Below are positions 25,533 to 64,000 of a DNA stretch of 64,000 nt, in pieces. The notes under the pieces were generated by a model that saw nothing but the letters and a program-made list of their open reading frames with translations, ran no database searches and was not told the DNA's origin. The stretch's first letter is position 1. Every line of letters starts with the position of its first letter. The position numbers and the translations under genes were made by a program. Origin of the DNA: Chloroflexota bacterium (GTDB lineage Bacteria; Chloroflexota; Limnocylindria; P2-11E); NCBI GenBank assembly GCA_027310565.1, contig DAIDAP010000037.1, positions 256,163 through 320,162 on the forward strand, given 5' to 3'.

Positions 25533-25557
25533 GACGCTATCCGGTCGGTCGGCCCGG

Positions 25558-25642
25558 TGCCGGAGGAGGGAGTCGAACCCCCAGGTGGGCGTGAGCCCGA
25601 CCGATCTTAAGTCGGCAGCGTCTTCCGTTCCGCCACTCCGGC
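25558..25642 (-). tRNA. tRNA-Leu (anticodon UAA)
   Basis: Minus-strand sequence GCCGGAGUGGCGGAACGG...CGACUUAAGAUCGG...long variable arm...GGUUCGACUCCCUCCUCCGGCA. 7-bp acceptor stem, anticodon loop CUUAAGA, type-II variable arm. CCA is not encoded. Confidence 0.8.
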
Positions 25643-31217: not shown

Positions 31218-32749
31218 CAGCTGAGCGGGACCGCCTGGCCCGCGCGGATCCACGAATCCTCGTACGCGAGGAGGCCGAGCAGCGCGGCGAGCGCGGCGGC
31301 GACGGCGAGCCCGGACGTGATCCCGGCACCGAGCGAGGCGAGCGCGAGGGCGACCGGCAGCGCGACGCCGAGGGCGACCGCGCCGACCCAGAAGCGCGCC
31401 GCGGTCGCGCCGTGCGTCATGGCGCGGGCGGCGAGACGCACGTCGTTGCTCGCGTGGGGCGTGACGAGCTCGGCCGCGACGAAGAGCGCGTGGAGCGCGG
31501 CGCCCGCGACGATGGCCACGAAGAGCGGCGGGAGCGCGTCGGTCGCGCCCATGGCCGCGGCGGCGACGACGAGGACGGCCGCGCCGGCGAGGGCCGCCTG
31601 GACCACGAGGTGCAGCGGCAGGAGCGGCGACTGCCAGAAGTCCCGTCCCTCGGCCTGACCGAAGAGGAAGCCGCTGTAGCCGGCGGCCGCGGCCGCGAAC
31701 GCGATGCCCGCCAGCCCCAGCGGCGCCACGAAGCCGGCCAGCCCGAGGACGATCGCGGCGCCCCAGAGGAACGCGAGGCCGCTGAAGACCATGAGGATGT
31801 AGGCGCCCCAGACCAGCCAGGAGCGCGGATTCGGCCTGAACACCAGGTAGAGGAAGCGCTCGGGCCGCTTGAGGTCCCACACGAGCAGCGCCACGGTCGC
31901 CAGCGCGAAGAGGAGCGCGATGGCCGCCGCGACGACGCCGAACGGCTCGCGCGCCGTCCCGCCGAGCGCGAGCACCGCGGCGACGCCGAAGGCGCCGGAC
32001 GAGATCGACTTCGTCCAGAGGTAGCTCGAGACGCGCCACCCCCACGGCGCCGGATGCGCGACGTCGTACACGTCGCGCGCGGTGCCCTCGGCCATCGAGA
32101 TGCGCTGGGGGGACGGGACGGCCGGCGCCGCCCCACCGTGTCCGTCGGGGAGCTGGCCCCACATCGTGACCCCGTCGCGCCGCGAGAGGTTCGGCGTGAG
32201 CGTGAGGGCGTCGGCGGCGATGTAGAAGAGCTTCGGCTGCGTCCCCTGCTCGGGCTTGCGCACGTGCACCGGCTCGCGCGCGATGAGCCGGCTGATCGAG
32301 CTCTCGGGGTCGTCGAGGTCGCCGGAGACGATGGCCGTCTCCGGGCACACGATCTCGCACGCCGGCTTCAGCCCGACGTCCACGCGGTGCGCGCAGAAGT
32401 TGCACTTCATCGCGGTGTGCTCGCGCGGGTCGATGTACAGCGCGTCGTACGGGCAGGCCTGCATGCAGGACTTGCAGCCGATGCAGCGGCTCGTGTCGAA
32501 GTCGACGATGCCGTCGGGCCGCCGGAAGAGCGCCTTCGTCGGGCAGATCGCGACGCACGGCGCGTCCTCGCAGTGGTTGCAGCGCAGGACGGTGAAGTGC
32601 CGGCGGGTGTTGGGGAACTCCCCCTTCTCGATGTACTTCACCCACGTGCGGAAGACCCCGAGCGGGACGTCCTGCTCCTGCTTGCACGCGACCGTGCAGG
32701 CGTGGCAGCCGATGCAGCGCCGCTGGTCGATGAGGAAGCCGAAGCGCAC
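31217..32749 (-). CDS. Fused 4x[4Fe-4S] ferredoxin (PsrB/DmsB-like) and NrfD/PsrC-like polytopic membrane subunit
   Basis: N-terminal MRFGFLIDQRRCIGCHACTVAC... with four Cys clusters. The C-terminal half has about 8 TM helices of NrfD type. GTG start. Confidence 0.85.
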   Translation of the reverse strand: MRFGFLIDQRRCIGCHACTVACKQEQDVPLGVFRTWVKYIEKGEFPNTRRHFTVLRCNHCEDAPCVAICPTKALFRRPDGIVDFDTSRCIGCKSCMQACPYDALYIDPREHTAMKCNFCAHRVDVGLKPACEIVCPETAIVSGDLDDPESSISRLIAREPVHVRKPEQGTQPKLFYIAADALTLTPNLSRRDGVTMWGQLPDGHGGAAPAVPSPQRISMAEGTARDVYDVAHPAPWGWRVSSYLWTKSISSGAFGVAAVLALGGTAREPFGVVAAAIALLFALATVALLVWDLKRPERFLYLVFRPNPRSWLVWGAYILMVFSGLAFLWGAAIVLGLAGFVAPLGLAGIAFAAAAAGYSGFLFGQAEGRDFWQSPLLPLHLVVQAALAGAAVLVVAAAAMGATDALPPLFVAIVAGAALHALFVAAELVTPHASNDVRLAARAMTHGATAARFWVGAVALGVALPVALALASLGAGITSGLAVAAALAALLGLLAYEDSWIRAGQAVPLS

Positions 32750-33970: not shown

Positions 33971-35539
33971 TTACGGGCCCTCGTGGTCGTCGTCGGGGAC
34001 GAGCGCGACCGAGTTCGAGAGCGGGTTCAGCGTGCAGTCCGAGCACTCGAGGACGTCGCCGTATTGCCCGCCCCAGAAGCCGCGGATCTCGCTTCCGCTC
34101 ACGAGGCCTTCGTAGAAGGTGAACGGCGCCACGGTGAAGAGATGGACCCGGTCGATCTTTTCGTTCCCGTTCGGGTCGACGTTCGAGCAGTCCGACCCGT
34201 CGCCGATGAGGCTCCACTCCTCGCCGGGCTGACCGGGCGAGTAGGTCTCGGCGCAGTCCCACAGGAACACGATGACGACGAGCCCCTTCCCGTACGGCTT
34301 CCCGGACTTGGTGAACCGGTCCGAGAACGGCGCGTTCGGGTCGCCTTCGCGCTGGATGAGCGAGCGCATGTTGTCCGCGATGTTGTCGCCGAGGTTCCCC
34401 GACGCGAGCGACGTCTCGACCCAGTCGCCCGTCAGCGCGTTGCCCTCGCCGCACGAGGGCGCGAGGTCCGGCCGGCTCTCGTCGTCGCACACGGCACGCT
34501 CGGTGAGCGGCGACGGCTGTTCCTGACCCTCCGGCAGGCTCGCGGAGTCCCACGCCTCGGTCAGCGAAAGCTCGCCGAGGAACGAGTAGTAGAACCAGTT
34601 CGGGATGTCGCACGTCTTGTCGTACTGCTGCGGGTCGTGGCTGCCGGCGGTGTCCCACGGGCCACCGCAGTTGCCCTGGTCGGGCTTGTCCGGCCCATTG
34701 CTGTAGTCCGTCTTCGCCTCCGCGCCGGTGCCGCTCTGATCCCATGACGCGGTCAATTGCGGGACTTCGCCACCCAAGCGCGTCGAGTACCGGGACGGGT
34801 CGATGAGGCCCTTGAAGCTCCCGTAGACGACGTCGTCCTCCCGCGATGACCAAAAGACGGTGGGCTCGACCTCCGTCGGGTCGCAGTCGCCCGGCACGCA
34901 CGGGTTGTCGAAGTCGGCCGGGTCGTAATGGCGCACCATCGGCCAGATCGGGCCCGCGAAGGACGGGACGTTCCCCGAGATTTGTGCCCGGGCGGAGGCG
35001 GCCGCGTCGATCGCCGGCCGCCCGATCACCGACGCCACGAGCGACCGGTACGTCGTGGAGACCGCCACGCGGACGTACACGGTGTCGCCCGGGACGATCT
35101 GGCTACCCGCAGGATCGTCGCAGACGCCGAGCGCCGAGGCGGCCGAGGTCCACACGATCGGATCGGTGTCGCTGCCGAACTGTAGGGTGAACTCCGTCGT
35201 GCTCTCGCGGATCTGGAACGCGTCGTTCGCGTCCACGAAGCGCTTCGCCTCGCACCAGACGTCCTCGCCGTGGACGGCGAACGCGATCCGGTCGTCGACC
35301 AGGATCACCGATGTCGCCAGCTGCCGCGCCGCCCCGAGGGCCGCTGCGTCGGCGGCGGTCTGCAGGACGCGGCGCTGGGTCAGGCCGTAGCCCCAGTCGA
35401 CCGCGAGGGCGAGCGCCCCCAGCAGGACGACGATCGACAGGGCGACGACGACCATCGACTGCCCGGCCTCGGACCCTGTGAGCCGCTTCGTGAGCGATCG
35501 CACGACAGCGATCCTTTCGCCGGGCGGGGCGCGTGCCAA
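33971..35539 (-). CDS. TadG/TadE-like pilus-assembly protein, large pseudopilin-type with extended C-terminal domain
   Basis: N-terminus GQSMVVVALSIVVLLGALALAVDWGYGL...LQTAADAAALGAARQ is the Tad TadE/TadG signature. The protein is about 520 aa. The overlapping 540-aa ORF in another frame is rejected. Confidence 0.65.
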   Translation of the reverse strand: MARAPPGERIAVVRSLTKRLTGSEAGQSMVVVALSIVVLLGALALAVDWGYGLTQRRVLQTAADAAALGAARQLATSVILVDDRIAFAVHGEDVWCEAKRFVDANDAFQIRESTTEFTLQFGSDTDPIVWTSAASALGVCDDPAGSQIVPGDTVYVRVAVSTTYRSLVASVIGRPAIDAAASARAQISGNVPSFAGPIWPMVRHYDPADFDNPCVPGDCDPTEVEPTVFWSSREDDVVYGSFKGLIDPSRYSTRLGGEVPQLTASWDQSGTGAEAKTDYSNGPDKPDQGNCGGPWDTAGSHDPQQYDKTCDIPNWFYYSFLGELSLTEAWDSASLPEGQEQPSPLTERAVCDDESRPDLAPSCGEGNALTGDWVETSLASGNLGDNIADNMRSLIQREGDPNAPFSDRFTKSGKPYGKGLVVIVFLWDCAETYSPGQPGEEWSLIGDGSDCSNVDPNGNEKIDRVHLFTVAPFTFYEGLVSGSEIRGFWGGQYGDVLECSDCTLNPLSNSVALVPDDDHEGP

Positions 35540-35778: not shown

Positions 35779-36441
35779 ATGATCCTGGTCTTCGATCGTG
35801 AGGGCTCCATCTTCCAGCAGCTGCGCGACCTCGACCTGAATCTCCCGCTCTGGCGCGTGAGCGATCCCTCGCGCCTGGACCGCACCAACGACATCGACCT
35901 CGCGATCGTGGCCACGCGGGACCAGCTGCCCTGGGACCTGATGACGAACGCGGACCGGCCCTTCGACACCGTCGTGCTCACGGACCGGTACGACGCCGAC
36001 GAGGCTCTCGAGGCCGCGCTCCACGGGGTCGTCGGCTACCTCGACGCGAGGGCGCCGGCGCCGCTCCTCCGGCGCTCGATCCAGGCGATCCTGCGCGGCG
36101 AGCCCGGATTCACCCGCGCGACGCTCGGTCAATGGGTCCGGCGCCAGCGCTCCTGCTCTCGCGCGCGCCTCAGCTACCGCGGTCTCACCGAGCGCCAGCG
36201 CGAGGTCCTCCGCCTCGTCGCGGATGGTCTCGCCGACAAGGAGATCGCGCAGCGGCTGGGCATCGCGACCGCGACCGCGCAGAAGCACGTGACCAACATC
36301 CTCGAGCGCCTCGGTGTCTCGAATCGCGCGGCCGCGGCGGCGGCGATCTGCTGGCAGGGGCTGGAGGCGCTGTGCTCCACCTGCGAGCGGCCCGCGAGCG
36401 CGTCGGATGCGCGGCCTCGTCTCATGCCCAGCATCGCGTAG
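35779..36441 (+). CDS. LuxR-family response regulator (degenerate receiver plus LuxR HTH)
   Basis: C-terminal LTERQREVLRLVADGLADKEIAQRLGIATATAQKHVTNILERLGV; N-terminal receiver-like domain (MILVFD...). Confidence 0.75.
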   Translation: MILVFDREGSIFQQLRDLDLNLPLWRVSDPSRLDRTNDIDLAIVATRDQLPWDLMTNADRPFDTVVLTDRYDADEALEAALHGVVGYLDARAPAPLLRRSIQAILRGEPGFTRATLGQWVRRQRSCSRARLSYRGLTERQREVLRLVADGLADKEIAQRLGIATATAQKHVTNILERLGVSNRAAAAAAICWQGLEALCSTCERPASASDARPRLMPSIA

Positions 36442-36492: not shown

Positions 36493-37131
36493 ATGTATCG
36501 CGCGCTCGTCGCGTGCCTCGCCGTCGCGGCGGGTCTCGCGCTGAGCATCCAGTCGAGCCCCGGCGCGCCGGCGGCCGTGCCGCCGGTGCCGATCGTGTCA
36601 CCCATGCCGACGATCGCGTCACCGACGCCGCAGGCGATGGCCACGACACCGTTCGGCGCCGCATCGGCGCCTGCGACCCCGTCGGCGACGCCGGAGCCGC
36701 GGAGCATCGAGGGCGTCCACATCGTCATCGAGCGTCTCGCGATCGATCTCCCGCTCGTGTGGGGCGACGTCCAGCGCGATGTACCCCGCGAGGGCTATCC
36801 GGGAGCGACCCCCGAGCGGGTCGCGCTCGTCTTCCCGGGCAGCGCGCTGCCGGGGACCGGCGGGAACACGTACGTCTACTCCCATGCCCGCACCGGCATG
36901 TTCCTGTCGCTGTGGCAGGCGAGGTTCGGCGATCAGGTCGTGCTCCGCTGGCCGGACGGATGGCAGCTGGGCTACGTCGTGACCGAGATCGTCCCCCGCG
37001 TGGATCCGAGCGACACGCGCTGGCTTGACGCGGCAGGCCCGGAGCGCCTCACGCTCCAGACGTCGACCGGTCCCTACCCATGGAATCCGCGCTTCATCGT
37101 GGTCGCCGTCCCACTCGGGAGATCGTCGTGA
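36493..37131 (+). CDS. Sortase-fold protein with Ser replacing the catalytic Cys (TLQTS instead of TLxTC); signal/TM anchor plus Pro/Ala linker
   Basis: Matches the sortase pattern motif by motif: PGTGGNTYVYSHAR (GN..GHR His motif), FGDQVVL, YVVTEI, LTLQTSTGP (Cys-to-Ser position), NPRFIVVA (Arg motif). Paralogue at 46351..47136. Confidence 0.6.
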   Translation: MYRALVACLAVAAGLALSIQSSPGAPAAVPPVPIVSPMPTIASPTPQAMATTPFGAASAPATPSATPEPRSIEGVHIVIERLAIDLPLVWGDVQRDVPREGYPGATPERVALVFPGSALPGTGGNTYVYSHARTGMFLSLWQARFGDQVVLRWPDGWQLGYVVTEIVPRVDPSDTRWLDAAGPERLTLQTSTGPYPWNPRFIVVAVPLGRSS

Positions 37132-37556
37132 CACGACGCCGTATCCGCGTCTGCGTCGTCGACGCGGGTCCGGGTGTCGCCGCCTACCCGCGTCTCGACG
37201 AGTGCGACCTCGAAGTCGTCGGCGCGCTCCCGGGGATCGCGGACGCGCTCCGCGCGCCGATCAGCGACCTCGATCTCGTCATCGTCGGCGCGTTTCCGAG
37301 GGACCTGCGGGACGCCCGCTTCCAGTCGCGGATCACCCGCCTCGCCCGGCGGCTGCCGACGGCGCTCGTCGTGCCGAAAGTCACGCGGCGCGCCGCCATC
37401 GTCGCGGCGAATGCGCGCGTGAGCGCGCTCGTGGTCCGCGACGCGCCGCCGACGACGTTCGTGCACGCGATGCGGGCGGCATTTCGCGGCGAGGTCGCCT
37501 ACCCGCACGAGGCCGTCACGCGCCTCCTCCGGCTCGTCCCAACGCAACCCGTCTGA
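37128..37556 (+). CDS. Hypothetical receiver-like (CheY-fold?) protein
   Basis: VTRRRIRVCVVDAGPG...DLVIVGAF resembles a degenerate REC domain. The GTGA overlap with the upstream gene supports translation. Confidence 0.35.
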   Translation: MTRRRIRVCVVDAGPGVAAYPRLDECDLEVVGALPGIADALRAPISDLDLVIVGAFPRDLRDARFQSRITRLARRLPTALVVPKVTRRAAIVAANARVSALVVRDAPPTTFVHAMRAAFRGEVAYPHEAVTRLLRLVPTQPV

Positions 37557-37640: not shown

Positions 37641-38033
37641 GTGAGCGAACGAGGTCAGAGTCTCGTCGAGGTCGCGATCGCCCTGCCCTTCCTGCTCATC
37701 GTGCTGGTCGGGCTCGTCGATCTCGGGCGCGTCTTCCACTACACGATCGCGGTGGAGACGGGCGTGCGCGAGGGCGCCGCGTACGCGGCGCGGCTGGTGG
37801 CACCCGACGACGACGCGATCCGCCAGCGCATCTGCGAGGCGAGCGGCATCGCCACCGAGGGCGGCCCGTGCGACGGGCTCACCCTCACGGAGGCGCGCGT
37901 CGGCGGCGAGGGCGGGGGCTTCGTCGACGTCATGTACGACCTCGACCTGCTCTTCGGCCACATCCTCCGCTTCGCCGACCCCGGCCCCGTGCACCTGCGC
38001 GCGACCGCGACCTTCCCGAGTCTCGTGAGATGA
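37641..38033 (+). CDS. tadE: TadE-like pseudopilin
   Basis: GQSLVEVAIALPFLLIVLVGLVDLGRVFHYTIAVE (TadE N-terminal motif). GTG 37641. Confidence 0.75.
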   Translation: MSERGQSLVEVAIALPFLLIVLVGLVDLGRVFHYTIAVETGVREGAAYAARLVAPDDDAIRQRICEASGIATEGGPCDGLTLTEARVGGEGGGFVDVMYDLDLLFGHILRFADPGPVHLRATATFPSLVR

Positions 38034-38503
38034 GACGTCCCGTGTCGACCCGCGCGAATGGTTTCGCGAAGGACGTGCGCGGCGTGGCGATCGTCGAGTT
38101 CGCGATCGTCATGCCGATCCTCCTTCTCCTGCTCGTCGGCATTTTCGAGCTGGGACGCGCGTACAACGCGTACGCCACCGTGCGCAGCGCGAGCGCCGAG
38201 GGCGCCCATTGGGCCGCGCTGCACCCCGGCGCGGCGATGTCGGAGATCGAGGCCGCCGTTCTGCGGCGCGTGGTCCCGCTCGACACGCGGCGCGTGTCGG
38301 TCGAGGCCTGGTACGACGACGGCACCGCGTACGTCCGGTGGGATGAGGGCGGCATCCCGGCCTCCGGCCCCAGCAAGCGCATCGTGCCGATCCGTGTCCA
38401 GGTCAGCTATCCCTGGTCCGCCGTGACCTTCCTCTTCAGCAGCGTCCTGCCAGAGCGTTCCGCGACCTTCACCGCGACAACGACCGCCGACGCGATGCGA
38501 TGA
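38030..38503 (+). CDS. TadE-like pseudopilin (second copy)
   Basis: RGVAIVEFAIVMPILLLLLVGIFELGRAYNAYATV. ATGA overlap with the preceding tadE. Confidence 0.75.
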   Translation: MRRPVSTRANGFAKDVRGVAIVEFAIVMPILLLLLVGIFELGRAYNAYATVRSASAEGAHWAALHPGAAMSEIEAAVLRRVVPLDTRRVSVEAWYDDGTAYVRWDEGGIPASGPSKRIVPIRVQVSYPWSAVTFLFSSVLPERSATFTATTTADAMR

Positions 38504-38527: not shown

Positions 38528-39250
38528 GTGCGCGCCTCGAGATCCTGGATCTTCCTCGTCATCGGTGTCGTCCTCGCCGTCGCGACCGGCATCGTCCTCT
38601 ACCAGATCGCGGCGTCGCCGCCCACCGCCCAGGCGACGGTGAACGGGGCGACGGTCAGCATCGTCGTCGCGACGGCGGATATCGCCCCGCGGACCGTGAT
38701 CGCCGCGGACGTGGTGACCATGAAGGCCTACCCGACCGACCTCGTGCCGCCGGGCGCGCTCACCGGCCAGACCGACGCGGTGGGCGCCACCACGAGCATC
38801 CGCATCTCGAAAGGCCAGCCGGTCCTGCGCGACGCGCTCTCGGCGGCGAGCCCGAGCGCGGTGAGCAGCAGCGTGATCCCAGCCGGCAAGGTCATGGTCG
38901 CGTTCCCGACGAACGATCCGCTCACCACCGCCGGCCTCGTGAGCGTCGGCGACCGCGTCGACCTGCTCGCCACCGTCGTCGTCGGCACGGGCGAGGGCAC
39001 GCGGACGACACAGACCACGCTCCAGAACCTCGATGTCGCGGAGGTCATCCTGCCCACGAAGGAACAGCCGCAGCGGGTCCGCTCGCTCGTCTTCGTCGTG
39101 GACCACCAGGTCGCCCTCGTCCTCAAGTACCTGCGCGACGCCGAGACCACCGTCGACCTCACGATCCGATCCCGCGCCGAGACGGCGCTCGTGAAGACGA
39201 CGAAGGTCGATCTCGAGTACCTCGTCAACACGTACGAGATGAAGAAGTGA
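38528..39250 (+). CDS. cpaB: Flp pilus assembly protein CpaB (RcpC-like)
   Basis: N-terminal TM, SAF-like domain (GATVSIVVATADIAPRTVIAADVV) and C-terminal domain typical of CpaB. Confidence 0.75.
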   Translation: MRASRSWIFLVIGVVLAVATGIVLYQIAASPPTAQATVNGATVSIVVATADIAPRTVIAADVVTMKAYPTDLVPPGALTGQTDAVGATTSIRISKGQPVLRDALSAASPSAVSSSVIPAGKVMVAFPTNDPLTTAGLVSVGDRVDLLATVVVGTGEGTRTTQTTLQNLDVAEVILPTKEQPQRVRSLVFVVDHQVALVLKYLRDAETTVDLTIRSRAETALVKTTKVDLEYLVNTYEMKK

Positions 39251-40410
39251 CACGCGAGCGTCTGGTCCACCTCATCGACACGGACACCGGGCTCGCGGTG
39301 CAGCTGCGGGACCCGCTCGCGACGGCGCGGCTGCCCCTCGCGGGCACCCACGCCAACGTCGAGGCGCTCCTCGCGTCGGAGCGGGCCGTGCCGGACGTGG
39401 TGGTCCTCGACTGCGCGGCCACGGGCGGTGAGCCCGCTTCCGCGGTCCGCGCCGTCCTGTCACGGTGGCCGGACATCTGTGTCGTGGTCACCGGCGGCAC
39501 GCCCTCGATGCTGTCGCACGCGGTCACCGCCGGCGCGCGCGGCTTCCTCCTCAAGCCGTACGCGCCCGACGAGCTCGTCGACGTGATCAGCGAGGCGACG
39601 GCCGGGGCCCGAGCGGTACCCCACGTCGAACGGACCGACGGGAAGATCGTCGCGATGTACGGACCGAAGGGCGGATCCGGCTCCTCGACCGTCGCCGTCA
39701 GCCTCGCCGCGCTGCTCGCCGGGCGGCCCGGCCTGTCCGTCGGGCTCGTCGACCTGGATCTGCAGTTCGGCGACGTCGGCGTGCTCCTCGACGTGCGGAC
39801 GCCGAACAGCATCCGGGACCTCGTCCAGCACGAGATCGATGGCGCCCTGGTGGACGACACGTTCGTGCGCCACGGCTGCGGAGCGCGCGTCCTGCCGGCG
39901 CCCGACACGCTCCTCACGAACGGCGCGATCGAGGCCGCCGGCATCGAGCACGCGCTCGAAGGTCTGCGCCCGCACTTCGACGTGATCATCTGCGACCTTG
40001 CGCAGGCGGTCGACGACCTCACGACGCGCGTCCTGCGCCTCGCGGACCTCGTCGTGCTCGTCACGAAGCCGGAGCTCACCGCCCTCAAGAGCCTGAGCCG
40101 TCTCCTCAAAGCGAAGGAGCTCTCGCTCCGGCTCGACGACCACGTCCTCGTCGCGGTGAATCGCCTCCCCTCCCGCGGCGCGCTGAGGCCGAGCGAGGTG
40201 GAGCGCTCCATCGGCCGACCGATCACCGTCGGGATCCCGAGCGATGGCGCGGCCATCGTCGACGCCGCGAACCGCGGCGTCCCCGTGGCCGATCCGCGCG
40301 TCCACTCACGCGCGCACAAGGCGTTCGTCGACCTCGCCTCCGCGGTCGCGCGCGAGCTCGAGCTCGAGCCACCGCAGGCCGGAGGCCCGCGACTGGTGGA
40401 GGTGGCCTAG
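39247..40410 (+). CDS. cpaE: Pilus assembly protein CpaE/TadZ (N-terminal receiver-like domain plus ParA/MinD-type ATPase)
   Basis: Deviant Walker A YGPKGGSGSSTVAVSLA. REC-like N-domain. Confidence 0.8.
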   Translation: MTRERLVHLIDTDTGLAVQLRDPLATARLPLAGTHANVEALLASERAVPDVVVLDCAATGGEPASAVRAVLSRWPDICVVVTGGTPSMLSHAVTAGARGFLLKPYAPDELVDVISEATAGARAVPHVERTDGKIVAMYGPKGGSGSSTVAVSLAALLAGRPGLSVGLVDLDLQFGDVGVLLDVRTPNSIRDLVQHEIDGALVDDTFVRHGCGARVLPAPDTLLTNGAIEAAGIEHALEGLRPHFDVIICDLAQAVDDLTTRVLRLADLVVLVTKPELTALKSLSRLLKAKELSLRLDDHVLVAVNRLPSRGALRPSEVERSIGRPITVGIPSDGAAIVDAANRGVPVADPRVHSRAHKAFVDLASAVARELELEPPQAGGPRLVEVA

Positions 40411-41747
<1,337 letters not shown>

Positions 41748-41751
<4 letters not shown>

Positions 41752-42695
41752 CGCAGGCCGAGATGCTGGCCGTCCTGGGGGCGGCCACCGTCCTCGCGTT
41801 CGTGATCGCGATCTGGGTCCCGACGTTCGCGCGCGCGCGCTCGATGCAGCGACGCCTCGCCGGGTTCGTCGAGAACGGCGAGGTCGCCGTCGACCTCGGC
41901 GGGCAGCGCCGCGAACGTGGCGTCTTCGTCGCCGAGCGTGGCCGCGGCGGCGCGTTCGGGTGGCTGCGCGACCTCATCGGACAGGCCGACGCGGATCTGA
42001 CGCTCGCCGACGTTCTCGTCGCGACCATGGTGCTCGGCGTCTCGGCGGCCGCGGCGGTGGCGATCGTCTGGCTCAACCCGATCGTCGCGGTCGGTGCGGG
42101 GATCGTCGCGGCGGCCGCGCCGCTGCTGTGGCTACGCTGGCGCGCCGGACAGCGCCGTGCGCGGTTCGTGTCGCAGCTGCCCGAGACGATCGAGCTCCTG
42201 GCGACGATGGTCCGCTCGGGCAACACCTTCCTCCAGGCGATGGAGCACGTGGCGTCCGAGTCGCAGGACCCGATGCGCTCCGCGCTGCACGTCGTCGTGC
42301 GCGAGATCGGGCTCGGCGCGTCGCAGGAGGAGGCCCTCGAGCGGCTCCTCGAGCGCTTCCCGTCGGACGACCTCGCGCTCGTCGTCGCGTCGGTGAACGT
42401 CCACCAGCAGACCGGCGGCTCGCTCGCCACCGTCCTCGACCGGATCTCGGAGACCCTGCGCGAACGCATCCGGCTCCAGGGTGACATCCGCGCGTTTACG
42501 GCGATGCAGCGCTACAGCGCCTACGTGCTCGCGGCGCTGCCCGTCGCGGTGGCGGGGATCCTCATGCTCGTCAGCCCTGAGTACATCACCCTGCTCGTCG
42601 CGCCCGGCGCGCTGCGCGTCTTCGCGGCGATCGCCGGGATCGAGATCGTCCTCGGATTCCTGGTGCTTCGGCGGATGGCGGAGATCGATGTTTGA
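41748..42695 (+). CDS. tadB: Tad inner-membrane platform protein TadB
   Basis: T2SSF-like domain. ATGA overlap with cpaF; RBS GGGAGG. Confidence 0.8.
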
Positions 42696-43641
42696 GACGT
42701 TCGGGCTGCAGCTCGCTTCCGAGACCCAGGCCGCGATAGGCGTCGCGCTGCTCGGCGCGCTCGCGATGCTCGCGCTCGCGCTGTGGTGGGCGTTCCGCGG
42801 CGGCGAACGCGAGGCGCGCGCACGCGAGCGCCGACTCGCGATCGTCGTCGGCGAAGCGGAGCAGACCACGGCGGGCGGCGCTCCGACGGCGAAGGGCATC
42901 CCGGCGCTGCAGCGGCTCGCGTCGCTGGTCGGCGCGCTCATGCCCGCCGCGATCGCCGCGCGCACGACCGAGCGCCTCGCGCGGGCGGGCCGTCCCTTCG
43001 GCCTCGAGGCCGCGGACTACCTCGCGCTGCGCGCGCTCAGCACGGTGATCTTCGCCGTCCTCGCCGGTGGCGTCGCCTGGGCCGCCGGGCTCGAACCCGC
43101 GGCGATCGGCCTCGTCGCCCTCGCCGGCGCGCTCCTGGGCTACGCGGTCCCCGGCATCCTGCTCGACCGCGCGATCCGCGGACGCAAGCGCAACATCGTC
43201 CGCGCGATGCCCGCGGCGCTGGACATGCTCGCCCTCTCGACCGCCGCCGGGCTCACGCTCGATGGCGCCATGGCGCAGGTCATCCAGCGGTGGGACACGC
43301 CGCTCGCCGGGGAGCTGCGCCGCTACCTCGCCGAGGTGCAGATGGGGCGCGACCGGCGCGCGTCGCTGCGCGCGATGTCGCGCCGGGTCGGCGTCCAGGA
43401 GGTCACGCGGCTCAATGCGGCGATCATCCAGGCCGACTCGCTCGGACTGCCGATCGCGCAGGTCCTCCGCGAGCAGGCGAACGAGATGCGGCGCATCCGC
43501 CGCCAGCGCGCCGAGGAGGCCGCACGGTCAGCGCCGGTGAAGATGGTGTTCCCGCTCGTGCTGCTCATCTTCCCGGCGCTGTTCGTCGTCGTGCTCGGGC
43601 CAGCGATCCCGCGGATCATGGATCTCTTCACCTCCTACTGA
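42688..43641 (+). CDS. tadC: Tad inner-membrane platform protein TadC
   Basis: T2SSF-like domain, paralogous to tadB. 8-nt overlap with tadB. Confidence 0.8.
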   Translation: MFETFGLQLASETQAAIGVALLGALAMLALALWWAFRGGEREARARERRLAIVVGEAEQTTAGGAPTAKGIPALQRLASLVGALMPAAIAARTTERLARAGRPFGLEAADYLALRALSTVIFAVLAGGVAWAAGLEPAAIGLVALAGALLGYAVPGILLDRAIRGRKRNIVRAMPAALDMLALSTAAGLTLDGAMAQVIQRWDTPLAGELRRYLAEVQMGRDRRASLRAMSRRVGVQEVTRLNAAIIQADSLGLPIAQVLREQANEMRRIRRQRAEEAARSAPVKMVFPLVLLIFPALFVVVLGPAIPRIMDLFTSY

Positions 43642-43794
43642 AGCGACGTACCGAATTCCGCGTACGTCCGCGCCGCCTACCGACTCTCACGAATGGGCGG
43701 CGCATGCGTGCGTGCCTAGCGTCCGAAGGGAATGACGAGAACGCAGGAACGCATCGACACGTGGTCCGCGCCTGCGCGGACAGGGAGAATCCAC

Positions 43795-46290
43795 ATGCGC
43801 AAGGGCCCGCCGCCCCTCCTCATCCTCATGCTCTCGCTGATCCTGGCGATCAGCAGCGCCGCAGCCTCCTTCGCGGTCGCCGCTCCGGACGGAGCGGGTG
43901 TGAACCTCGACCAGTGGGCCAACACAGACGGGGCGTGGCAGAACGGGGACCTGAACAAGAACAACTCGGTCTACGCCGAAGGTGAGGTCGTCCCGTTCCG
44001 CCTCGCGATCGAAGGCCTCACGCCCGGCGTACACACCATCCACCTCAACTGGGACGTGACCGCGAGCGGGCACGCCGCGTACGACTTCCTCGCGAGCTAC
44101 GACGCGACCGAGTCACCGGACCTCTGCGCGGCCGGCGGAGGCGGCGTGTCGTCGCTCTGCCCATCGCTTCCGACCGCATTCCCGCTCGCGATGTTCACCG
44201 ACACGTTCTCCATCGACGGAAAGCCGATCGCGGGCGCGTACGGCTCGACGCCGCGCGTCATGACGCTCTACGGCGTGAGCGCGGCGTCCTTCGGGCCGCC
44301 GACCTACACGGACGGCGCGCACTCCTCCGGTGACGTCGAGCTGACGTTCACCGCGAGCGGGACCGCTGTCCTCCTCGCCTGGGGCGGCCACATCGCCGCG
44401 ACGTCGTACTGGGGCCCCGACGTACCGCAGGGCGCGGGCATGGTCTCGGGCGCTCCGTGGCACATGCGCACGCAGTCGCTGGACGGCGGCGGCCAGAGCA
44501 ATCAGGACCGCAGCATCCAGACGAGCGCGCTGCCCGACCCGGTCATCCGGATCGTGAAGTACCAGGACACGAACGGTGACGGCGACCGCGACGCCGGCGA
44601 GCCCGGCCTCGCGGGATGGAGCTTCACGATCTACGACTCCGCGCAGCACGATGAAGGCACATACAGCACCGGCACGGACGGCACGGACGGCACGGTGACC
44701 GTCACCATGCGTGACGCCGACACCTACACCGTCGTGGAGGACCTCCAGACCGGGTGGACGAACACGGATCCGGGCACCGGCTCGGAGACGGCCGTCGCGC
44801 CGCGCGGCACGACGACGGAGCTCGTCTTCGGCAACAGGTTCACCGAGGTGCCCGAGAACGGCACCGTCCAGGTCTACAAGTACAACGACGAGAACGGCGA
44901 CGGCGATGACGAGGACGGGGCGGACCCGGCCATCGCGGGCTGGGACTTCACGGTCCAGGCCGTCGTCGAGGGCACGCCCACCGGACCGACCTACGATCTC
45001 ATCACGGGGTCCGATGGCTACACCGACGTGCTCGAGCTCGCACCGGGCACGTACGGTGTCTGCGAAACGCTCGGCGAAGGCTGGACGAATACCTACCCGG
45101 GCTCGCAGGACGCCACCGTCTGCTGGGAGACACTCGTCGAGCCGGACCAGGACGCCATCCTCACGTTCGGCAACCACTACACCGCGCCGCCCGAGAACGG
45201 CACCCTCCGCGTCTTCAAGTACGACGACATCGACAACGACGGGTCGCGTGCCGAAGGCGAGCCGGGCCTCTCCGGCTGGCGCTTCACCGTCGAGCCGATG
45301 GTCGAGATCAGCACGCTCGAGAGCCTCATCCTGACGACCGGCTCCAGCCCGCTCGGACGCGGCACGCTGTCGCTGCCCGAAGGCTGGTACGAGGTCTGCG
45401 AGCAGAGCCCGCTCCCGACGGGCTGGAGCAACACCGACCCCGGCGACGGACTGTGCAACAGCGTGTACGTCCCTGAGGGCCAGGACAGCGACGTCCTCTA
45501 CTTCGGCAACCACTACACGCCGACGCCGACTCCGACGCCGCAGGACGGGACGCTCCAGGTCACGAAGTACAACGACACCGACCGCAACGGCACGCGCGGC
45601 ACCTCTGAACCCGGGCTTGCCGGCTGGGCCTTCCGGGTCTACAGCGGCACGACCCTCCTGACGACGCTCACGACCGACGCGAACGGTGTGGCAGCCATCG
45701 GGCTCGTCGCCGGTACCTACACGGTGACCGAGGTCACCCAGACCGGGTGGACGAACACCGAACCCGGTGGAACGACACCGACGAAGACGGCGACCGTGGT
45801 CGCCGGACAGGTCACCGGGGTCATCTTCGGCAACGCCGTGGTGATCATCCCGCCGACGACTCAGACGCAGCTCGTGATCACGAAGTACGCCGACGGCAAC
45901 CGCAACGGCGCGCGCGACACGGGTGAGGGCGTCCTCGCCGGCTTCACCTTCACCATCCGTGACAGCGCGGGCACCGTGGTCCGGACGGTCGTCAGCGGTG
46001 CTGACGGCACGGCGACGGTCACCGGACTCGCGCTCGGCGCGTACAGCATCACCGAGGAGGCGACAACGGGCTGGGTGAACACCGACCCCGGTGCCGCCGC
46101 GGGCGCGCGCAAGTTCGTGACGTTCACGAGCACCGCCACCTCGGCGACGGTCATCTTCGGCAACGCGCAGGTCCAGCTGCCCTCGACGTCGACGTCCGAG
46201 GACGGGATGGTGCTTCTGCTCCTCGCGCTCCTCGCGGGCGTCGGGCTGGCCCTGCCCTTCGCCGCACGGCGGGGGCCGCGCATGGCATAG
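43795..46290 (+). CDS. Large surface adhesin: signal peptide, ~250-aa N-domain, five SdrD-B/CnaB-like repeats, C-terminal sorting-signal-like tail
   Basis: ATG 43795 follows the RBS GGGAGA. Signal MRKGPPPLLILMLSLILAISSAAA. Repeats: VKYQDTNGDGDRDAGEPGLAGWSFTIYDS, VYKYNDENGDGDDEDG...AGWDFTV, VFKYDDIDNDGSRAEGEPGLSGWRFTV, VTKYNDTDRNGTRGTSEPGLAGWAFRV, ITKYADGNRNGARDTGEGVLAGFTFTI. C-terminus: QLPSTSTSEDG-MVLLLLALLAGVGLALPFAA-RRGPRMA. Confidence 0.8.
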   Translation: MRKGPPPLLILMLSLILAISSAAASFAVAAPDGAGVNLDQWANTDGAWQNGDLNKNNSVYAEGEVVPFRLAIEGLTPGVHTIHLNWDVTASGHAAYDFLASYDATESPDLCAAGGGGVSSLCPSLPTAFPLAMFTDTFSIDGKPIAGAYGSTPRVMTLYGVSAASFGPPTYTDGAHSSGDVELTFTASGTAVLLAWGGHIAATSYWGPDVPQGAGMVSGAPWHMRTQSLDGGGQSNQDRSIQTSALPDPVIRIVKYQDTNGDGDRDAGEPGLAGWSFTIYDSAQHDEGTYSTGTDGTDGTVTVTMRDADTYTVVEDLQTGWTNTDPGTGSETAVAPRGTTTELVFGNRFTEVPENGTVQVYKYNDENGDGDDEDGADPAIAGWDFTVQAVVEGTPTGPTYDLITGSDGYTDVLELAPGTYGVCETLGEGWTNTYPGSQDATVCWETLVEPDQDAILTFGNHYTAPPENGTLRVFKYDDIDNDGSRAEGEPGLSGWRFTVEPMVEISTLESLILTTGSSPLGRGTLSLPEGWYEVCEQSPLPTGWSNTDPGDGLCNSVYVPEGQDSDVLYFGNHYTPTPTPTPQDGTLQVTKYNDTDRNGTRGTSEPGLAGWAFRVYSGTTLLTTLTTDANGVAAIGLVAGTYTVTEVTQTGWTNTEPGGTTPTKTATVVAGQVTGVIFGNAVVIIPPTTQTQLVITKYADGNRNGARDTGEGVLAGFTFTIRDSAGTVVRTVVSGADGTATVTGLALGAYSITEEATTGWVNTDPGAAAGARKFVTFTSTATSATVIFGNAQVQLPSTSTSEDGMVLLLLALLAGVGLALPFAARRGPRMA

Positions 46291-46306: not shown

Positions 46307-46336
46307 CACCCACGCGTCACGACGCCCCGGCCAGAG
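46307..46336. terminator. Bidirectional hairpin between the convergent adhesin and sortase-like genes
   Basis: GACGCCCCGGCC-agag-GCCGGGGCGTC (11-bp stem). Confidence 0.55.
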
Positions 46337-46350
46337 GCCGGGGCGTCGGC

Positions 46351-47136
46351 CTATCGCGTCGGAGCTGCCTGCACGATGAGCACCGGCCCGCACGCGTCCG
46401 GGCTGAGGCTCGTCTGCATCGAGAGCGGCGCGAGGGGAAGCGGCGGCGGCTCGCAGCTGCGCACGATGAGCGCGCCTGTGATCACGTACCTCGTCCCGTA
46501 CGCCCACACCGCGTCGCCGGCCCGCCACCCGGCGATCCGCCCGAACTGGGTGTAGGCGTGCCCCATCAGGTACTGCGGAGAGAGGCACAGGAAAGAGCGG
46601 ATCGCCGTGCCGATGTCCGTGCCACCCGCGCAGTCGTTGTACGGGACGATCGCCCCGCGCACATCGACGCGCGGATAGCAGAACCAGTCCGGCGGACACG
46701 TCTCGGCCGCCGCCGGTGCTGCCGCGGTCGGCGCGGCAGTGGGGGCCGGGCTCGGTGCGAGCGTCGGCACGGTGGTCGGCACTACGGCCGCGATCGACGG
46801 GCTGGGCACGGGATTCGCGCTCGACGCCGCGGCGCTCGGGGCGGGCGCGCCCGACGGCGCCGCCGACGGTGCAGCGCGCAGGGCGATCCCATCGTCGCCC
46901 GCGAATCGCACGGCGTCTTCGAGATCCACCGAGCTGTCCGGCAATTGCCGGAGGGTCGGCACCAGCGCCGCCGTCCCGGCGCCGGCCGTGTCGTCGACGA
47001 GGGCGGCCGAGGCGGGCGGGGCGTCGTTGCCGGCGAGGATGACGGCGATGAGGAGGCCGAGCACGGTCAGGGCGCCGCCGGCGTGACGACGTGCGGCTCG
47101 TCGCCGCGCCGCGGGCAAGTGCATGTGACCGCACAT
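46351..47136 (-). CDS. Sortase-fold protein paralogue, also with Ser at the catalytic Cys position (SMQTS)
   Basis: LMGHAYTQF (His motif), AGDAVWAYG, RYVITGALIV, PLSMQTSLSP, GPVLIVQA. N-terminal TM anchor and Pro/Ala-rich linker like the 36493 paralogue. Start ambiguous among M1, M12 and M16. Confidence 0.55.
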   Translation of the reverse strand: MCGHMHLPAARRRAARRHAGGALTVLGLLIAVILAGNDAPPASAALVDDTAGAGTAALVPTLRQLPDSSVDLEDAVRFAGDDGIALRAAPSAAPSGAPAPSAAASSANPVPSPSIAAVVPTTVPTLAPSPAPTAAPTAAAPAAAETCPPDWFCYPRVDVRGAIVPYNDCAGGTDIGTAIRSFLCLSPQYLMGHAYTQFGRIAGWRAGDAVWAYGTRYVITGALIVRSCEPPPLPLAPLSMQTSLSPDACGPVLIVQAAPTR

Positions 47137-47212: not shown

Positions 47213-47706
47213 CTACAGGCCGACGCGCGGGAAGTCACCATGTTCCCGCAGAAAGGCGATGACGCCACCGGCGTCGAGGATCTCCTTTGCGAACGGCGGA
47301 AGGGGACGGAGGCGGATGTCCCCGCCCGGCGCGCCCAGGACACCGGCGGTCGCGTCGAGCGACACCTCGTCGCCGTCCTTCACGAGGTCGACCGCGTCGG
47401 CAGACTCGAGCACGGGGATGCCGAGGTTGATGCAGTTTCGGAAGAAGATGCGCGCGAAGCTCTTCGCGACGATGCCGCCGACGCCGAGCCGCTTCAGCGC
47501 GAGCACCGCGTACTCGCGGGACGACCCGCAGCCGAGGTTCTCGCCGCCGACGAGGATGTCGCCCGGCCGGACCTCCTTCGCGAAGCCCGGGCGCGCGTCG
47601 CAGAACGCGTAGGTGTGGAAGCGGTCCTGACCGACCATGAACGGCGCGTAGCGGCCGGGGACCATCTGGTCGGTGTCGAGGTCGTCGCCGAAGACCCAGG
47701 CGCGGC

Positions 47707-47710
<4 letters not shown>
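47213..47710 (-). CDS. leuD: 3-isopropylmalate dehydratase small subunit (aconitase-family small subunit)
   Basis: SRAWVFGDDLDTDQMVPGRY...GSSREYA. TTG start overlapping the leuC stop. Confidence 0.85.
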
Positions 47711-50696
<2,986 letters not shown>

Positions 50697-63944: not shown

Positions 63945-64000
63945 GAGGCGACGGTGGGAATCGAACCCACGGTCGGGGTTTTGCAGACCCCTGCCTTAAC
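63945..64000 (-). tRNA. tRNA-Cys (GCA), 3' portion; 5' part lies beyond the window
   Basis: Minus-strand sequence ...GGGGU-CUGCAAA-ACCCC (anticodon GCA), T-arm GUGGG-UUCGAUU-CCCAC, acceptor CGUCGCC plus discriminator U, typical of tRNA-Cys. Confidence 0.55.

Follow-up and report, generated by a model that had tools for sequence, protein, structure and literature searches.

How might a surface protein be sorted where the neighboring sortases carry serine in place of the catalytic cysteine? Textbooks describe sortases as cysteine transpeptidases, and the enzymes are in wide use for protein ligation; the question is raised by a 64-kb stretch of Chloroflexota DNA (contig DAIDAP010000037.1 of assembly GCA_027310565.1; the whole stretch of 64,000 nucleotides is referred to here as the window). 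In it, an adhesin gene at 43795–46290 (+) closes a Tad/Flp pilus island that carries a Ser-type sortase gene near its start. A sequence-only reading of the window had proposed that the adhesin ends in a tripartite sorting-signal-like tail with LPSTS instead of LPXTG, and that this tail and two neighboring sortase-like proteins with Ser at their nucleophile position form a co-adapted, noncanonical sorting system. We find that the adhesin probably does end in a sortase-type envelope-sorting signal, with the clade consensus L-P-[S/N]-T-[S/A]-T. The new element appears to be a sortase lineage in which Cys has been replaced by Ser, and whose catalysis is predicted only.

The C-terminal tail of the adhesin

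The translation of 43732–46290 (+) ends in FGNAQVQLPSTSTSEDG-MVLLLLALLAGVGLALPFAA-RRGPRMA, immediately before the stop codon, so that the C-terminus of the adhesin consists of QLPSTSTSEDG, 20 hydrophobic residues, and RRGPRMA. Sequence and comparison identify the LPSTST motif (46177–46194, +) as an instance of L-P-[S/N]-T-[S/A]-T. It is followed by a short acidic/Gly spacer, SEDG (46195–46206, +), which is D/E-rich in most homologs, by the 20-residue hydrophobic, membrane-spanning segment MVLLLLALLAGVGLALPFAA (46207–46266, +), and by a basic end with its stop codon (46267–46290, +; RRGPRMA at 46267–46287 and the stop at 46288–46290). Motif, hydrophobic segment, and basic end thus bear out the tripartite sorting-signal architecture that had been proposed. 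LPSTS lies 37 residues from the C-terminal end, with Ser/Ala in place of the Gly of LPXTG, as in class D signals. When isolated tails were scored against the LPXTG_anchor model TIGR01167 (cut-off 15.9 bits), that of the window reached 14.0 bits and that of a protein from another genome (locus L068) 16.9 bits. No second comparable tail was present among the open reading frames (ORFs) of the window.

We compared 16 motif-bearing proteins with four unrelated bodies. Four motif residues (L, P, T, and T) never change (16 of 16), and the flanking residues vary; position 3 is Ser in 14 proteins and Asn in two, and position 5 is Ser in 10 and Ala in six. The hydrophobic segment and basic end are kept in 14 of the 16, the two proteins without both being those of loci L210 and L211. 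All close homologs of the adhesin that reach their C-terminus retain LPST[S/A]T, and the tails of P0002–P0005, P0007, and P0011 consist of [QRL]LPST[SA]T, a stretch of acidic and Gly residues, a membrane segment, and an Arg-rich terminus. The sequence-only reading had allowed for a variable, unconserved site in orthologs, in which case the tail would be just a C-terminal membrane anchor; the site is instead conserved.

The bodies that bear the tail are diverse: SdrD-B adhesins, the DUF11-repeat protein P0011, DUF3494-like (ice-binding-like) proteins with Pro/Thr-rich linkers (one each in L068 and L079; L080 encodes two), and a small protein of locus L077. The DUF3494 assignment was made by eye from sequence motifs, without a family scan, and a relative of the small L077 protein, encoded beside another Cys-type sortase, gave a weak match to Big_1. 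More distant proteins have only the N-terminal domain in common with the adhesin, and at least four kinds of C-terminal anchor occur among the proteins that share this domain (P0013–P0120): LPRTG; PTAFTGSDA; TPRITPPPTD followed by a membrane segment and RRRDRR; and LPST[SA]T. Since the distant relatives carry other anchors, the anchor is a swappable module. As a negative control, metagenomes were searched with the DNA pattern CTGCCCTCGACSKCSACS, which gave at least 120 matches; the 120 listed were all chance LPST[SA]T-coding matches in other frames or contexts, and none of them was followed by a membrane-plus-basic tail. These comparisons indicate that the LPSTST motif is more than a chance feature of a membrane anchor. 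As a separate observation, the ITPPPTD type of anchor matched no sorting signal that could be named.

Two proteins depart from the tripartite layout. Adhesin paralogs at L210:7753–9570 (−) and L211:7739–9502 (−) terminate other Tad operons, each convergent with a homolog of the second sortase-like gene of the window (described below). They retain QLPSTSTDPLEDG and end approximately 11 residues later, in FGNARVQLPSTSTDPLEDGSPTP or in GSTTF before the stop codon. The motif and acidic stretch are kept, and the L210-type C-terminus, QLPSTSTDPLEDGSPTP, has no membrane segment or basic end, nor is there space for one ahead of the neighboring gene in either locus. Because the motif is kept in these proteins despite the absent membrane anchor, it would seem to be selected for its own sake.

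The protein that bears the tail in the window is 831 residues long. Its gene begins with the ATG at 43795 in an ORF that is open from 43732, and the G+C content of this ORF (43732–46290, +) varies with codon position as expected for a true gene, in a window with a G+C content of ∼71%. The database version of the adhesin, P0001, has the same start and length (43795; 831 residues) and is 100% identical. Its N-terminus reads as a typical Sec signal peptide (MRKGPPPLLILMLSLILAISSAAASFAVAAP), followed by the N-terminal domain, which is common to many surface proteins of Actinomycetota and Chloroflexota, and the body consists of five SdrD-B/SpaA-type repeats (Pfam SdrD_B 79 bits, SpaA 76 bits) with the pattern [IV]x[IV]xKYxDxxxxG...GW.F. 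The body had been described from the sequence alone as SdrD-B/CnaB repeats typical of Gram-positive MSCRAMM adhesins. The repeat domain stands, as the Pfam matches show, but the MSCRAMM label was overstated, because only the repeat domain is in common and the setting is a Tad-pilus operon of Chloroflexota rather than a Gram-positive pathogen. Membership in that family (SdrC/SdrD type), which calls for a match over the A region, the B repeats, the SD repeats, and LPXTG, was rejected on the NCBIfam MSCRAMM_SdrD score (36.5 bits against a cut-off of 2500), the B-repeat domain alone being in common.

Ser-type sortases and their linkage to the signal

The Ser-type sortase of the island, P0121 (36493–37131, +), is a protein of 212 residues with an N-terminal membrane helix, a linker, and a sortase barrel. 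It matches the Pfam Sortase family PF04203 with 51 bits (cut-off 26.6), and its AlphaFold barrel (pLDDT, the predicted local distance difference test, ∼95) retrieves class A, C, D, and E sortases in Foldseek with E ∼1e-8. HMMER aligns its TLQTSTGPY on the TLMTCT-PY of class C sortases. Thus, where the TLxTC pattern has the catalytic Cys, P0121 reads TLQTS; the catalytic domain contains no Cys, and the sole Cys of the protein lies in the N-terminal membrane helix. (A lipoprotein signal around this residue was considered and rejected, as LVAC lies just 7 residues from the start.) None of the NCBIfam sortase class models (A–F and GN) accepts P0121, the best being class E with 20.5 bits against 160. 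Because the Ser-type proteins lack the catalytic Cys and fall below every NCBIfam class model, we do not class them as enzymatic sortases.

The replacement is not confined to P0121. A search with P0121 gave 1060 matches at E < 1e-3; TLQTSTG is present in all 120 of the best 120 of these, and Ser was likewise found in 82 genomic loci. In an alignment of 28 sequences with ∼50% identity, His131 (36883–36885, +), Ser191 within TLQTSTGP (37063–37065, +), and Arg200 (37090–37092, +) are invariant. The Ser codons are all TCG or TCC (TCS), a single base from the Cys codon TGC. Species-representative genomes contain at least 570 Ser-sortase loci, nearly all of them labeled Candidatus Limnocylindria or Chloroflexota. 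A few contigs with typical Limnocylindria-type Ser-sortase and nuo loci (L013, L024, L027, L048/L067, L033/L072, and L082) bear other labels (Bathyarchaeia, Saccharimonadales, Dormiibacterota, Acidiferrales, Solirubrobacteraceae, and Udaeobacter), which are probably binning errors in metagenome-assembled genomes. We additionally observed further Ser-type subfamilies (P0393, P0446, P0410, P0416, P0427, and others) in which the catalytic Arg column is also altered, either as LQTSEGP with Lys or as LQTS[TQ]G with Glu, the latter of which would give a Ser/His/Glu set; some of their members are fused into longer proteins of 300 to 600 residues.

The second sortase-fold protein, P0241 (46351–47064, −; 237 residues), is divergent in sequence and is encoded convergently to the adhesin. 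It consists of a membrane anchor, a Pro/Ala-rich linker of ∼100 residues, and a C-terminal domain of ∼115 residues, and it matched no Pfam domain. The C-terminal domain is confidently modeled by AlphaFold, and its best 50 PDB matches are all sortases (E ∼1e-3). A direct BLASTP comparison between P0121 and P0241 was not significant, so their relationship rests on the fold search and on a weak profile–profile alignment (hhalign E 0.014, probability 3%), which places YLMGHAYTQ on YIYAHARTG and LSMQTS on LTLQTS. P0241 has 102 homologs; it carries six invariant Cys, the invariant His169 (46558–46560, −), and Ser219 within LSMQTS (46408–46410, −). The family keeps the His and has no Arg in the strand that bears the Arg of type-1 sortases; most members end in an Arg, which the L210 and L211 proteins lack. 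The proposal that both neighboring sortase-like proteins carry Ser at the nucleophile position is therefore firm for 36493–37131 and holds at the level of the fold for 46351–47064.

We found that the signal and the Ser-type sortases are linked in the genome. In L068, L077, L079, and L080, genes bearing the tail end ∼60 to 300 bp upstream of Ser-type sortase genes. When a sliding-window tail test was applied to ∼1.2 Mb around 80 Ser-sortase loci, the sorting-signal-like tails that it returned were all LPxT[SA]T, and LPXTG tails were absent from the same ∼1.2 Mb. Co-occurrence of the signal with the Ser-sortase family, which the sequence-only reading had named as a check, is seen in other genomes as direct adjacency of the two genes.

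A neighbor-joining tree resolves the Ser-type sortases into three groups: one linked to Tad genes (the window, L001, and L003–L005), a large one downstream of nuo, and one linked to DUF3494-like genes (L068 and L080). The three clades resemble the housekeeping and dedicated sortase paralogs of Gram-positive bacteria. The commonest paralog (L006–L075, most of the loci compared) is found on the downstream side of nuo, the NADH dehydrogenase operon, at a distance of ∼2 kb, and a LuxR-type gene follows ∼2.7 kb beyond the sortase gene.

Cys-type relatives and known sorting systems

The Cys-type relatives bear on whether the Ser of the motif answers the Ser of the enzyme. A profile search of 1.84 billion representatives gave 2483 matches, and the best 150 of these hold 67 Ser-type and 64 Cys-type proteins, interleaved. 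Both types have the strands YxYAHxxxGMF and LQT[S/C] in common. The closest sequence relatives of the Ser-type proteins (∼100–140 bits to the Ser-sortase profile) are unclassified LQTC Cys-type sortases from Dormibacteria, Chloroflexota, and metagenomes (P0369, P0377, P0380, and others), and the nearest of them also fall below all NCBIfam class cut-offs. They have the same strands, the same operon, the same post-nuo position, and an LPNTAT substrate, and they differ in having Cys (TGC) where the others have Ser (TCS).

Two operons allow a direct comparison. In L203, a Cys-type sortase (P0377, LQTCTS) lies in an operon of the order small substrate, sortase, DUF4012, and the substrate ends in GLPNTATS followed by a membrane segment. 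The same operon is found in L077 (Limnocylindrales) with a Ser-type sortase (LQTSTS) and a substrate that ends in VLPNTSTL. The two sortases are 48% identical, and the substrates are homologous, with 34% identity. In Dormibacteria, the Cys-type sortase P0369 occupies the position downstream of nuo that most Limnocylindria Ser-type sortases hold. The Cys-type loci L205–L209 have no adjacent substrate, so the comparison with Cys-type enzymes rests on L203 and L204. In both Ser- and Cys-type operons, a DUF4012 protein of 650 to 710 residues directly follows the sortase gene (L077:9571–11544, L203:2300–4435, L206:860–2851, and L208:5618–7567).

The motif Ser is therefore not co-adapted to the Ser nucleophile, because the substrate of the Cys-type L203 has LPNTAT and that of the Ser-type L077 has LPNTST, and because the Cys-dependent class D sortases of Bacillus use LPDTS, LPDTA, and LPNTA. 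Ser or Ala after the Thr appears instead to belong to a sortase lineage that includes Cys enzymes, rather than to the Ser nucleophile. Of the co-adapted, noncanonical system that had been suggested, the linkage of the signal to Ser-type sortases is retained, and the idea that the motif Ser answers the enzyme Ser is not.

Among characterized systems, Bacillus subtilis SrtD anchors LPDTS and LPDTA proteins, and Bacillus anthracis uses LPNTA (PMC3222306). The NCBIfam model NF058671 describes a class D sortase as "LPxTATN-specific," and PDB matches show that Streptococcus pyogenes SrtA has been crystallized with LPATS and LPATA peptides. The class D system (B. subtilis SrtD/YhcS, with the substrates YhcR, LPDTS, and YfkN, LPDTA) has the same tripartite tail, Ser/Ala after the Thr, often a Thr after the Ser/Ala, and substrate genes that adjoin the sortase gene. 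It differs in that its enzymes have the Cys of TLxTC, match the class D models, and come from Bacillota, whereas those described here have Ser, lie below all NCBIfam cut-offs, and come from Chloroflexota; in addition, motif position 3 is nearly fixed as Ser here, unlike in class D signals. By analogy, the adhesin tail would be a class D-type LPxT[A/S] sorting signal in a new sequence variant and a new phylum.

The class A system for LPXTG (Staphylococcus aureus and S. pyogenes SrtA) likewise has the signal peptide, the motif/hydrophobic/basic tail, and a β-barrel with His and Arg, but here Ser/Ala replaces Gly, the next Thr is invariant, Ser occupies the nucleophile position, and the tail lies at the edge of TIGR01167. 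Class C pilus sortases offer a likeness in the SpaA/SdrD-B repeats, in the dedicated sortase-like gene beside the adhesin, and in the pilus locus; however, the pilus here is of the Tad/Flp (type IVc) kind, which is not polymerized by sortases, and no pilin motif, lid, or E-box was identified. In the rhombosortase/GlyGly-CTERM system, a C-terminal motif, membrane segment, and basic tail are processed by a serine enzyme, but its fold (a rhomboid intramembrane protease) and motif are unrelated to the sortase system, and the likeness is one of analogy only. The literature that we searched, the coverage of which is incomplete, contained no description of serine sortases, of an LPSTS/LPSTST motif, of Limnocylindria sortases, or of C184S activity.

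Proposed mechanism, alternatives, and the Tad pilus island

In the mechanism that we propose, the adhesin would be exported by Sec via its N-terminal signal peptide, after which its hydrophobic segment and basic end would keep it in the membrane. LPSTST would then be recognized by a membrane-anchored sortase-fold enzyme of the same island, for which the protein at 36493–37131 is the main candidate, and the divergent protein at 46351–47064 may serve as a dedicated partner. By analogy with the LPxT[A/S] class D signals, cleavage is predicted after the Thr of LPST, and the protein would then pass to an acceptor in the envelope, presumably an amine of a peptidoglycan precursor. Given His-Ser-Arg in place of His-Cys-Arg in this lineage (Candidatus Limnocylindria), an oxy-ester would take the place of the thio-ester as the covalent intermediate. 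More generally, it is quite possible, and we put it forward tentatively, that a hydroxyl has taken the place of the sortase thiol in Limnocylindria and related bacteria, such that an extensive natural family of His-Ser-Arg serine sortases with TLQTSTGP would cleave and transpeptidate LPxT[S/A]T proteins via an oxy-ester acyl-enzyme; that specialized paralogs, including the Cys-rich mini-sortase on a long stalk, couple the adhesin to the Tad island; and that the L210 and L211 substrates are processed without a membrane anchor.

Several considerations weigh against this proposal. Cleavage, its site, the acceptor, and the catalytic competence of the Ser are all steps that we infer. The active-site Cys of S. 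aureus SrtA is essential, and exchange of Cys for Ser is expected to cripple a thiol-tuned site. A Cys-type sortase may exist elsewhere in the genome, of which the window is a 64-kb view, and most Ser-type loci, being nuo-linked, have no substrate gene nearby. The comparison with Cys-type enzymes draws on one operon family (L203/L204). Finally, L210 and L211 suggest that the tripartite architecture is not obligatory for whatever reads the motif. We nevertheless favor the Ser enzymes as active because His, Ser, and Arg are invariant, because Ser and Cys forms occupy identical operon slots, and because their codons differ by one base.

The same three observations bear on the alternative that the Ser-type proteins are dead pseudo-sortases (receptors, chaperones, or regulators) that bind LPxT[SA]T, with the adhesin either staying helix-anchored or being cut by an unseen Cys-type sortase or another protease. 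Reviews name Cys as the defining nucleophile of all characterized sortases, no NCBIfam sortase class model accepts the Ser-type proteins, the change of the catalytic Arg to Lys or Glu in related Ser subfamilies could mark decay of the site, and the second sortase-like protein lacks an Arg in the type-1 Arg strand. Relaxed selection, however, predicts something other than a His, a Ser, an Arg, and an entire TLQTSTGP strand that are invariant over hundreds of sequences; Ser-type genes hold the exact operon positions of Cys-type orthologs beside the same substrates; TCS lies one base from TGC in interleaved Ser and Cys forms, which looks like an exchange of equivalent residues; and the island shows no further sorting enzyme. 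We therefore regard loss of catalysis as unlikely.

A covalent link to the pilus, rather than to the wall, is a further alternative: LPSTST would couple the adhesin to a Tad-pilus component or to another adhesin (pilus-type polymerization), via the convergent protein with its 100-residue linker. Its appeal lies in the position of the adhesin, which always follows tadC, and in the adhesin/second-sortase-like pair, which is intact even when relocated (L005) and in L210 and L211; the repeats, moreover, include the SpaA fold of sortase-assembled pilins. Since the L210 and L211 proteins keep the motif without a membrane anchor, the second sortase-like protein may couple the adhesin to a nonwall target, such as a pilus component. 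Yet the analysis turned up neither a pilin-motif Lys nor an acceptor protein, the window yielded no Flp pilin gene, and DUF3494-like and L077-type substrates bear the same signal without Tad or second sortase-like genes nearby. The presence of the signal on substrates away from Tad genes implies that the signal itself is general, and we consider pilus coupling improbable. Least probable by far, and close to untenable, is that the tail is a mere membrane anchor and LPSTST a linker or an O-glycosylation-type Ser/Thr patch. The motif is indeed Ser/Thr-rich and adjoins Pro/Thr-rich linkers in some proteins, but the hexapeptide, including its Leu and Pro, is invariant across unrelated bodies whereas linkers are not conserved; the genes adjoin sortase-fold genes, the motif resembles the LPXTG_anchor model, and it outlives loss of the anchor.

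If the Ser-type lineage is active, then the sortase fold supports hydroxyl-based transpeptidation, a chemistry new for the sortase family, and protein engineering would gain ligases that are insensitive to oxidation and have a specificity of their own, for LPST[S/A]T. It would also give a first handle on surface-protein display by abundant uncultured soil Chloroflexota (Limnocylindria) and on its link to Tad-pilus adhesion. If the Ser forms are inactive, they would constitute a large pseudo-sortase family with a conserved ligand, which would also be new. Ser and Cys operons that share their substrates were paired here from sequence, and these pairs make the question directly testable.

The island that the adhesin terminates has the composition of a Tad/Flp locus, with a TadA ATPase, the TadB/C platform, TadZ, CpaB, TadE/F pseudopilins, and a TadG-like protein. 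It starts with the divergent TadG-like gene (Pfam Tad; 33971–35503, −), and family scans place a LuxR/GerE-type regulator (35779–36441, +) ahead of the sortase gene. The sortase gene is followed by a conserved protein of 142 residues that gave no family match in the scan (37128–37556, +), two TadE-like pseudopilins (37701–38033 and 38075–38503, +), CpaB/RcpC (38528–39250, +), TadZ/CpaE (39247–40410, +), the TadA/CpaF ATPase (40489–41751, +), TadB (41748–42695, +), and TadC (42688–43641, +). No Flp pilin or prepilin peptidase was recognizable in the window, a motif search returning the TadE-like genes only. Between the convergent adhesin and second sortase-like genes, a 13-bp G+C-rich hairpin without a U-tract (46320–46348; −37.6 kcal/mol, z = −5.2) is probably a bidirectional terminator.

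The arrangement is not confined to this genome. The whole island is found again in GCA_041643075.1, the adhesin of which is 50% identical and has the tail RLPSTATDDG, a membrane segment, and RRAARRT, and L001 and L003–L005 repeat the gene order of the window (LuxR, sortase, Tad genes, adhesin, second sortase-like gene). The adhesin and second sortase-like genes form the tightest pair: in L005 they remain together upstream of the LuxR–sortase–Tad block, and they are also intact as a pair in the two further Tad loci L210 and L211.

Outside the island, the genes downstream encode homoaconitase-like small (47213–47710) and large (47707–49029) subunits and a homocitrate synthase (49134–50264), with a lysine riboswitch (Rfam RF00168, 65.9 bits) at 50366–50547 (−) upstream of the genes for the synthase and both subunits; this appears to be an α-aminoadipate lysine pathway under riboswitch control. 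On the other side, 28374–32749 (−) encodes a molybdopterin oxidoreductase (942 residues) and then a fused 4Fe-4S/NrfD-type subunit (510 residues). A tRNA-Leu(UAA) gene lies at 25556–25642 (−), and a partial tRNA gene lies at the end of the window (63946–64000, −).

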